Notes under the pieces: model-generated
Told to the model about the DNA's origin: nothing
Databases searched by the model: none
What the model saw: the letters and a program-made list of their open reading frames with translations, nothing else
Position numbers and translations under genes: made by a program
Source: Schmidtea polychroa
Lineage: Eukaryota
Direction: 5' to 3'
Assembly: GCA_044892525.1 (NCBI GenBank)
Contig: CM097885.1
Span: 1,552,001 to 1,616,000, forward strand
DNA length: 64,000 nucleotides
Shown here: positions 7,860-10,800 of the stretch, piece by piece
Layout of the letters: every line of letters starts with the position of its first letter
How positions within the stretch are numbered: position 1 is the stretch's first letter

Positions 7860-10800
7860 TCACGGAATTTCCCTCGTTATCCAAATCCTGTGTTTATCCC
7901 GGCGTATAATGAACTTCCTCATTTCATCAAAGGCCAACAGATAGAAACTGAATGGGAGAGCTATCAACCACCATGTGAACCTGAATTTATTATTTGATTA
8001 ATTGAATTTGTCCAATTCTATCCAACTGCCCACCTCAAGTTGCCAAGTTTCAATACAGTCTGAACCCCAGGAGTATACACTATAAATATTGCCAGTCCCG
8101 TTTCAAAGAACAGAGATAACGTGAGTTGGTGATTCCACATTCCTTGCTGAAACAATGAGTTCCTTCTGGTCTTGACAGCGAGAATGTTGCACCACTGCTG
8201 CACCATTACCGACACAAAGTAGGCGCTATAGACCGTGATTTCCAAATTTTTCCTTTGAATGTAAGTCTTAATTACAGAACTATTTCTAATGATAAATCTT
8301 TATTTTCACATTTACCCATTCTTGGCCGTAGGAATCTTTTAGGTCGTTTATTATTGGATTTTCCCAGCTTTCCCTGATCCCGACCAGCCTATCGGGCAAA
8401 AATCCGCTCTCAGCCATAATCACAAAATATGCAAAGAAAGACCCAACGGCTTGAATAATTCCTAATTGTCCATGTGTTAAGGAGATCAATCGGGATGTCA
8501 CTAGATTATCTTTTTGTGGATTGCGAGGCTTTCTTCTCATGATGTTTGATTCAGCCCCTTCGTATGCTAACGCAATCGCCGGCATCTGCATTGAAATAAA
8601 AATAAATCTTTATAACCTTTTAAATGTGGCTTTTTATGTGAACTTTCATTCGAATTATTCTTAACAGAAATCAAATTCTAGCATTAACAAGCCAAGCGTG
8701 ATTTGTACCAAAATAAATACAACACATTCGTGTCTGATAGGCCCCTGTTTTTTTGGTGATGAAATCACACATATCCAATCACTTATATAAAATGACAATT
8801 ATGTGTATCCAATCACAAATATCCAATAACAATAAATAACCGATATCCAATGATACAACCAATCATGAGCATCCAATCACAAATATCCAATAACAATAAA
8901 TCACCGATATCCAATGATACAACCAATCATGAGCATCCAATCACAAATATCCAATAACAATAAATAACCGATATCCAATGATACAACCAATCATGAGCAT
9001 CCAATCACAAATATCCAATAACAATAAATAACCGATATCCAATGATACAACCAATCATGAGCATCCAATCACAAATATCCAATAACAATAAATTACCGAT
9101 ATCCAATGGCACATCCAATCATGAGCATCCAATCACAAATATCTAATAACATACAATAAATCCCCGATATCCAATGGCACAACCAATCATGAGCATCCAA
9201 TCACAAATATCCAATAACAATAAATCACCGATATCCAATGATACAACCAATCATGAGCATCCAATCACAAATATCCAATAACAATAAATAACCGATATCC
9301 AATGGCACAACCAATCATGAGCATCCAATCACAAATATCCAATAACAATAAATCACCGATATCCAATGATACAACCAATCATGAGCATCCAATCACAAAT
9401 ATCCAATAACAATAAATAACCGATATCCAATGGCACAACCAATCATGAGCATCCAATCACAAATATCCAATAACATACAATAAATCACCGATATCCAATG
9501 GCACAACCAATCATGAGCATCCAATCACAAATATCCAATAACAATAAATAACCGATATCCAATGGCACAACCAATCATGAGCATCCAATCACAAATATCC
9601 AATAACAATAAATAACCGATATCCAATGGCACATCCAATCATGAGCATCCAATCACAAATATCCAATAACATACAATAAATCACCGATATCCAATGGCAC
9701 AACCAATCATGAGCATCCAATCACAAATATCCAATAACAATAAATAACCGATATCCAATGATACAACCAATCATGAGCATCCAAACACAAATATCCAATA
9801 ACAATAAATAACCGATATCCAATGATACAACCAATCATGAGCATCCAATCACAAATATCCAATAACAATAAATAACCGATATCCAATGATACAACCAATC
9901 ATGAGCATCCAATCACAAATATCCAATAACGTACAATAAATCACCGATATCCAATGGCACAACCAATCGTGAGCATCCAATCACACATATTCAGTTAAAC
10001 ACAATTCTAATCACACACACACGCATGCATATAAACAAACGCTCGAATATTGTAACATTTCTAAATTCAATTCGATGTAAGCAGAAAAATATGTACACTG
10101 CTCAATGTATGCAATCAGAATTATTAGTGAAATGCAGAGTGAGTAATGAAATAAATGACTAATAATAAATTGGGTTCATTTCCTGGTGGTGAAAATGAAA
10201 ATTAAACATAATTTTCAGTTATTTGTAATTTGGTGTATTTTCTAGACAATCATCAAATTGTGACGAGGGAATTTTCTACAAATAGCAGATATATATATAT
10301 ATATATATAGGATCATTTAGGTCGAATCTGATAATTCATACAATAATATGTTACCATATCTGTTCCCAAGTCGATGCATAGGATCGTGATTGTTCCCAGT
10401 GCCAAAGGAATGTTGATCACTGTGTAAGCCAAGAACGGAACTATTTCTGGAATAGTTTTCACCAAAATGTAAGTAATGGACTTCTTCAGATTGTCAAAAA
10501 TAATCCTGCCTTGCTCGATGCCTACAACAATGGAAGCAAAATTGTCATCCAGCAGGATCATGTCCGCCGCCTGCTTACTGACATCGCTTCCAGAAATTCC
10601 CATTGCGATCCCTAAAAGTTTAAATTACTTAATTTGACCAACATTTGAGATCATTTATTTTATAATTATTATTATGATTATTTAAAACAATAAAATGATA
10701 ATTTAAGCCTTTTGCTGCAAATAATGTATTTAATGAAAAAATTTTTGACTATAAGATAGTCCTTGTCAATCTCCTGAAATTTAGCAATCTTCTTCCCGAA

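Follow-up and report, generated by a model that had tools for sequence, protein, structure and literature searches.

A flatworm Na,K-ATPase alpha paralogue with lysine at the Ser775 position and an altered sodium site III: a candidate electroneutral 1:1 pump

The 64,000-nucleotide stretch of Schmidtea polychroa DNA analyzed here (the window) is AT-rich eukaryotic DNA that contains, on the reverse strand, a gene for the alpha subunit of a P2C ATPase. The hand-built model of this gene comprises 16 exons with 1017 codons, separated by 15 GT-AG introns and free of internal stops. The gene, the positions discussed below and two related features are located as follows.

7860..15327 (-): P2C ATPase alpha-subunit gene
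15327-15310, 15253-15081, 15034-14854, 14809-14696 (-): exons 1-4
14650-14516, 14463-14346, 14305-14037, 13479-13281 (-): exons 5-8
13237-12993, 12942-12713, 11934-11673, 11634-11406 (-): exons 9-12
10611-10355, 8585-8316, 8266-8034, 7980-7860 (-): exons 13-16
14037..14305 (-): exon 7, TM3-TM4, with E327 kept (Val in both sister paralogues)
10355..10611 (-): exon 13, end of the P domain, TM5 and TM6; T772I, T774V, S775K and N776T; P778, E779, D804 and D808 kept
10457..10459 (-): Lys codon AAA at the position of pig S775, a predicted tethered cation in site I (role as described in PMC9463140)
8472..8474 (-): Y847H in TM7, common to all three K775 paralogues
8186..8188 (-): D926N in TM8, site III carboxylate lost, Q923 and W924 kept
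8174..8176 (-): C930V in TM8, Arg here in vertebrate H,K-ATPases
7860..7980 (-): last exon, TM10; C-terminus one residue short, without the terminal YY
21924..23851 (+): inverted partial duplicate of the alpha gene, from mid exon 4 to the start of exon 10, 97.8% identical, without TM5
33868..36017 (+): divergent beta-subunit-like gene, extent approximate, partial model

The remainder of the window includes several features of other kinds.

1719-2332 (+): two exons for the C-terminus of an XPD/FANCJ-type helicase (Helicase_C_2)
38727-39884 (+): Tc5/pogo-type DDE transposase open reading frame
43249-43719 (+): hAT transposase fragment
60836-64000 (+): long gag-like open reading frame with a zinc knuckle
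56883-57434 (-): RING-finger open reading frame
46133-47023 (-): open frame of 296 aa without a Pfam match

Identical boundaries of exons 2-16 were recovered in two sister paralogues from the same genome, and the protein is recognizable as a P2C alpha subunit by its intact reading frame of about 1000 aa, the TGES, DKTGT, TGD and GDGVND motifs, and ten TM segments that align to Na,K- and H,K-ATPase structures. Reads from four runs belonging to four studies were aligned over positions 10050-12220 (one of the DNA-type runs is possibly that from which the assembly was built). The Lys codon has the same letters in all four runs, with no alternative base, and the two read differences within exon 13 (10376 and 10565) both fall, by our reading of the frame, on silent third positions. 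Contigs from two runs, presumed by guess to be RNA as no RNA source is on record, skip exactly introns 11 and 12, one of 794 nt and the other of 38 nt, and their loose ends run into exon 10 in both runs and into exon 14 in one; none of these spliced joints is present over 10050-12220 in the two DNA-type runs. The first-pass annotation of this DNA had described the open reading frame as intact and had proposed a check of the codon in reads; the 1017-aa frame and the spliced contigs agree with that description, and the agreement of all four runs refutes sequencing error. The inverted duplicate can be ruled out as the source of the spliced contigs because it lacks exons 11-13. The duplicate itself appears to be recent, with few coding changes, and is likely non-functional.

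Residues 1-85 of exon 13 correspond to positions 725-809 of pig alpha1 (PDB 7d91), which places the lysine, exon residue 51, at position 775. This alignment confirms the initial observation of a lysine (codon AAA at 10459-10457) in place of the TM5 serine, as well as the accompanying T772I, T774V and N776T; E327, E779, D804 and D808 are retained, as initially described. The TM5 sequence characteristic of canonical Na+,K+-ATPases (Y-T-L-T-S-N-I-P-E, including S775 and N776) is accordingly not found in this protein. The rest of the protein had been judged Na,K-like, which holds for the overall similarity but not for TM7, TM8 and the C-terminus, where further ion-site changes are found. Exon 14 (residues 1-90, pig 810-899) encodes Y847H, and exon 15 (residues 1-74, pig 900-973) encodes V922Q, D926N and C930V, with Q923 and W924 kept. 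The Na+ ion of site III is held by side chains matching T774, S775, D808, Q923 and D926 (PMC9463140; numbering converted to pig); three of these five ligands are lost (T774V, S775K, D926N), and D808 and Q923 remain. In human alpha3, the substitution D923N lowers Na+ affinity more than 100-fold, and strict H+ selectivity has been predicted to require the destruction of both site I and site III (PMC9463140). The canonical site III signature (T774, D926 and the C-terminal YY) is thus missing from the protein, the shortened C-terminus being taken from the model of the last exon, which lies outside the interval of the read alignment, and from the two sister paralogues. A different intron close to the stop codon can be discarded, as both paralogues stop at the same position. 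We also initially read Phe at 953 (E953F) as an H,K-like feature but rejected this reading because ordinary flatworm, annelid and mollusc pumps carry the same residue. Since site III is lost along with the change in TM5, the case for a reduced stoichiometry is stronger than the first-pass annotation held.

H,K-ATPases are generally treated as vertebrate pumps. With ATP12A and ATP4A the window protein has in common the lysine at the S775 position, a neutralized site III and a predicted cycle that would be electroneutral and involve a single K+; D804 is kept as in ATP12A. The vertebrate pumps, however, keep D926 and neutralize it with Arg930 (PMC9463140), whereas the window protein has Asn926 and Val930. 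It further differs from ATP4A and ATP12A in the Na,K-like W924 and P778, the replacement of N776 by Thr, and the lack of both an E820-type gastric residue and the YY, and by sequence, introns and best trees it belongs with flatworm Na,K-ATPases. Thus, of the residues that mark vertebrate H,K-ATPases, Lys775 is present, but neither Arg930 paired with Asp926 nor Ile at the W924 position (Trp here) is found, and because these two defining features are absent, the gene is probably not to be classed with the vertebrate H,K-ATPases, although its residues suggest that it resembles them in stoichiometry. Compared with the canonical pump of its own genome (C1:230.11 Mb), the window protein is 69% identical, with nearly the same introns, retains E327, E779, D804, D808, Q923 and E954, and shares Phe953 with ordinary flatworm pumps, but carries S775K, N776T, T774V, T772I, Y847H, D926N, C930V and the shortened C-terminus. 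Another point of comparison is alpha2KK of Artemia (PDB 8k1l; PMC10756188), likewise an invertebrate paralogue with a TM5 lysine in the ion pocket and a reduced stoichiometry. In alpha2KK, the lysine is at N776 and is joined by a second one in TM4 (N324), site III is intact, and the pump is a 2:1 electrogenic one (PMC10756188); in contrast, the window protein has T776, N324 and N926.

A six-frame search of the assembly from which the window comes (781 Mb in 1012 contigs) yielded 18 matches, seven of which are P2C alpha genes; the same seven were recovered with exon 15. We built models for the other six (the model of the C2 gene is without its first exons). Two of these are sister K775 genes located in tandem at C1:156.70 and C1:156.73 Mb, which have K775, T776, H847, Q922, N926 and V930 and stop at the same shortened position as the window gene. 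The window gene therefore belongs to a trio of related genes, in a genome in which only one of the seven alpha genes, that at C1:230.11 Mb, is canonical and the ion sites of the other six are altered. Members of the trio are 68-73% identical pairwise, with pS of 0.77-0.87, that is, saturated silent sites, and dN of 0.19-0.25, so that the trio signature (K775, T776, H847, N926, V930 and the short tail) is, by these sequence comparisons, one long kept under purifying selection. The two sister genes have additional TM4 changes, including E327V, which removes the site II glutamate, with open reading frames and catalytic motifs intact; their products may not transport K+, or may act on a different substrate. 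Two other alpha genes, at C1:230.13 Mb and C1:161.95 Mb, combine N776K, as in alpha2KK, with D926V, which alpha2KK does not have. The intronless one of the two (1007 aa) probably arose as a retrocopy; its counterpart sits upstream of the canonical pump gene, in tandem with it at a distance of about 600 nt. The remaining gene, at C2:46.76 Mb, has a canonical TM5 but D926N and E954S, and is by analogy a candidate for a 2:2 electroneutral pump. Altogether, the seven alpha genes of this one genome present five different ion-site arrangements.

In a tree with named relatives (no named triclad among the rows), the window gene falls among animal Na,K-ATPase alpha subunits, within a flatworm clade that includes Macrostomum, cestode and trematode pumps (support 100; 100/100 with the ion-site columns dropped, in a tree that left out 7 of the 34 rows). 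The vertebrate H,K-ATPases were represented not by full-length ATP4A and ATP12A but by two metagenome fragments, the gastric-like L003 and the ATP12A-like L004, typed by motifs that match the gastric and non-gastric pumps described in PMC9463140. In an LG+G4 tree with all paralogues, the K775 trio is monophyletic (99/97) and the H,K fragments are its sister (89/89), whereas under the LG+C20 mixture model (16 rows) the fragments join vertebrate Na,K-ATPases (96) and the trio pairs with the canonical pump of the genome within flatworms (100). We attribute the LG+G4 grouping to long-branch attraction, since it disappears under the mixture model, yet the AU test under that model does not reject the union of the trio with the fragments (p=0.166); the union of the query alone with the fragments is rejected (p=0.042), as is that of the trio with a K775 protein from Darwinula (p=0.001). 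Scores against structures of Na,K- and H,K-ATPases, respectively, are 132 vs 113-115 bits for exon 13, 126 vs 85-94 for exon 14 and 69 vs 36-45 for exon 15; exon 9 does not discriminate (77.8 bits for the gastric pump, 77.7-79.5 for the best Na,K-ATPases). The canonical paralogue shares 13 of the 14 tested intron positions with the window gene, which lacks four introns that interrupt L003, the gastric-like gene, between TM5 and the C-terminus. The phylogenetic analysis called for by the first-pass annotation, run with paralogues and H,K fragments, thus gives a flatworm Na,K-ATPase placement, with a position of the H,K fragments that depends on the model (89/89 vs 96). The proposed independence from vertebrate H,K-ATPases fares similarly: the best-fitting trees put the gene inside flatworm Na,K-ATPases, but one of the two AU tests does not reject a shared clade. 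Judging by its sequence, the window gene is by descent a flatworm Na,K-ATPase paralogue, and the same comparisons suggest that K775 was likely gained within flatworms, independently of the vertebrate pumps.

Among 153 proteins that cover site 775, 139 have Ser and two have Lys (the query and the Darwinula protein), and the canonical motif is present in all 117 further relatives, so that Lys775 is not a chance variant. It is not unique among invertebrates either: K775 is found also in CAG0898014.1 of Darwinula stevensoni, an ostracod, and in a divergent P2C protein (L002), both with D926N. The L002 gene (L002:435-2534) is P2C-like, with K775 and N926, and is by sequence far from animal pumps. 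A metagenome scan for the K775 motif identified five loci, namely the vertebrate-type L003 and L004, the divergent L002, and two chance matches in stop-rich DNA (L001 and L005), which were rejected as K775 pumps. Among 197 sequences covering both sites (402 were examined, two set aside as misaligned, and the rest were too short), D926 is lost or neutralized in 17 of the 18 with a basic residue at 775 or 776 and in 4 of the 179 others. This association is a pattern rather than a test, as the rows are not independent (seven represent one family and five come from this genome) and a TM8 query supplied part of them; alpha2KK, which lies outside this count, is a known exception. A P2C family from ENA/JGI (P0012, P0045 and their cluster members) has H775 and T776, Lys for Ile850 in TM7 and mostly D926N, and clusters in one tree (97/93) with the K775 protein of Darwinula. 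No close orthologue of the window gene emerged from searches of this kind: exon 13 gave a best identity of 84% among the best 120 of 8000 sequences scored, and exon 15 gave a single match among nine candidates, a canonical cestode-like pump. Among the 150 representatives listed, those matching at least 60 of 77 residues have identities of at most 54%, and the ESM Atlas gave generic Cation_ATPase_C clusters and clusters without a common family.

Taken at face value, the residues suggest, with a probability that we put at about 0.6, that the window gene encodes an electroneutral 1:1 K+-importing pump remodelled from a flatworm Na,K-ATPase alpha subunit. Such a pump would have been duplicated from the lineage of the genome's canonical pump and then remodelled to one cation each way. 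Lys775 would fill site I as a tethered cation, as judged from vertebrate mutants and structures, and therefore a single K+ would bind, at site II, where E327, E779 and D804 are kept. Site III would be disabled (T774V, S775K, D926N) because most of its side-chain ligands are gone and the capping C-terminal tyrosines are missing. For each ATP, one K+ would enter and one cation would leave, so that no net current results. The gastric and non-gastric H,K pumps of vertebrates both carry Lys at the S775 position and occlude a single K+, with two bound again in K794S; K794S, A797P, I943W and R949C together convert the non-gastric pump to one of the Na,K type, and Arg949 acts by neutralizing the aspartate (PMC9463140). 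The effect that Arg930 has in vertebrate H,K-ATPases would be achieved directly by D926N, a convergence by a partly different route. A counterpoint to the 1:1 reading is that the window protein has Thr in place of N776, which serves the non-gastric pump as a K+ ligand (PMC9463140). The exported ion might be H+, as would fit the two-site prediction, a suggestion that we make tentatively; that it could instead be Na+ appears rather unlikely, with P778 and the Na,K-like W924, the absence of Arg930 and the observation that phosphorylation can be triggered with Na+ bound at site II only (PMC10812997) fitting such export. That flatworms would have independently evolved a true H+,K+-ATPase, in which Lys775 blocks site I and D926N, rather than an arginine, removes site III, is a possibility that we regard as somewhat doubtful. 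The paired change at sites I and III seems to recur elsewhere, in the ostracod and in metagenomic families, and would point to a general two-step route to 1:1 pumps.

Several other explanations have to be weighed against a 1:1 pump. It is unlikely, although not negligibly so, that the protein carries out no usual Na+/K+/H+ pumping and instead hydrolyses ATP slowly or without coupling, acts as a leak pathway or in signalling, or transports another substrate such as NH4+. In rat alpha1, large side chains at S775 abolish K+-activated dephosphorylation, bulky neutral residues there make the pump inactive and unresponsive to K+, and in alpha3 the S-to-R change is pathogenic (PMC10812997); furthermore, the loss of E327 in the two sister genes hints that the trio clade may not be a conventional pump, in a genome where altered ion sites are the rule. 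Against this, the window gene keeps the four acids of sites I and II along with DKTGT and TGES, and lysine, unlike neutral bulk, tethers a charge in place, as it does in functional H,K pumps. An electrogenic pump with 2 Na+ : 1 K+, in which the lysine removes one site only, is decidedly improbable: Artemia alpha2KK, with its lysine at the neighbouring N776, does move 2 Na+ : 1 K+ (PMC10756188), and Q923, W924, P778 and D808 are kept in the window protein, but alpha2KK retains all site III residues (PMC10756188), whereas the window protein has D926N and T774V and no YY, and S775 itself is a ligand shared by sites I and III (PMC10812997).

We give very little credence to the ordinary 3 Na+ : 2 K+ stoichiometry, or to the gene being a pseudogene or an artefact of sequencing, notwithstanding the generally Na,K-like sequence, with the identity to the canonical paralogue given above, and the broken partial duplicate nearby: artefact and pseudogene are refuted by the uniform codon, the spliced contigs and the intact reading frame, at least two bases must change to turn Ser into Lys, and Lys775 is found in two distant paralogues as well. 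Similarly, it is most improbable that the gene is a true orthologue of the vertebrate H,K-ATPases or a member of an old invertebrate K775 clade and inherited its lysine. The LG+G4 placement, the unrejected AU grouping and the presence of K775 in Darwinula and L002 speak for such inheritance, but that placement nests vertebrate genes inside the paralogues of a single flatworm genome, the grouping involves long rows that are only 20-39% filled, and the mixture model, the two rejected AU groupings and the intron positions all argue against it. This last alternative concerns the origin of the lysine and is compatible with the 1:1 mechanism.

The first-pass annotation had also pointed to a linked beta subunit. 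A divergent beta-like gene is indeed present in the window, with one exon (35892-36017) matching PF00287 at E 4e-6 and the two others of three tested giving no Pfam match, and is at most a candidate partner of the alpha subunit, as it is one of 21 PF00287 matches in the genome. These matches represent a large expansion of beta genes, with five apparently intronless ones clustered at C3:125.19-125.26 Mb.

In planarians, an 'H,K-ATPase' has been defined by drug and RNAi, with SCH-28080 and RNAi altering head regeneration (Beane et al. 2011, 2013, as cited in PMC4895326 and PMC5443973). Both this protein and the one described here are flatworm P2C pumps, compared by the citing description and not by sequence; the planarian 'H,K-ATPase' may be the orthologue of the window gene, one of its sister genes, or the canonical pump, and the text or supplements of Beane et al. 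may already describe one of these genes. In the literature available to us, mostly titles and abstract openings with few subscription papers, there was no description of these flatworm residues, and the accessible portions of PMC6541873, PMC13618421 and PMC3793950 contain nothing on them.

The K775 family provides concrete candidates, with the right chemistry, for this planarian activity. The window protein naturally carries both lesions that, in the available text of Young et al. 2022, are predicted to be necessary for H+ selectivity, and one of the two corresponds to D923N, a cause of human alpha3 disease. The seven alpha genes with their five ion-site arrangements represent a comparative series for pump stoichiometry. 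A 1:1 pump can hold steeper gradients per ATP and would suit K+ uptake from a dilute medium or acid secretion; if the window protein is a true H+,K+-ATPase, it would be a natural test of the two-site prediction and possibly the target behind the planarian regeneration phenotypes.
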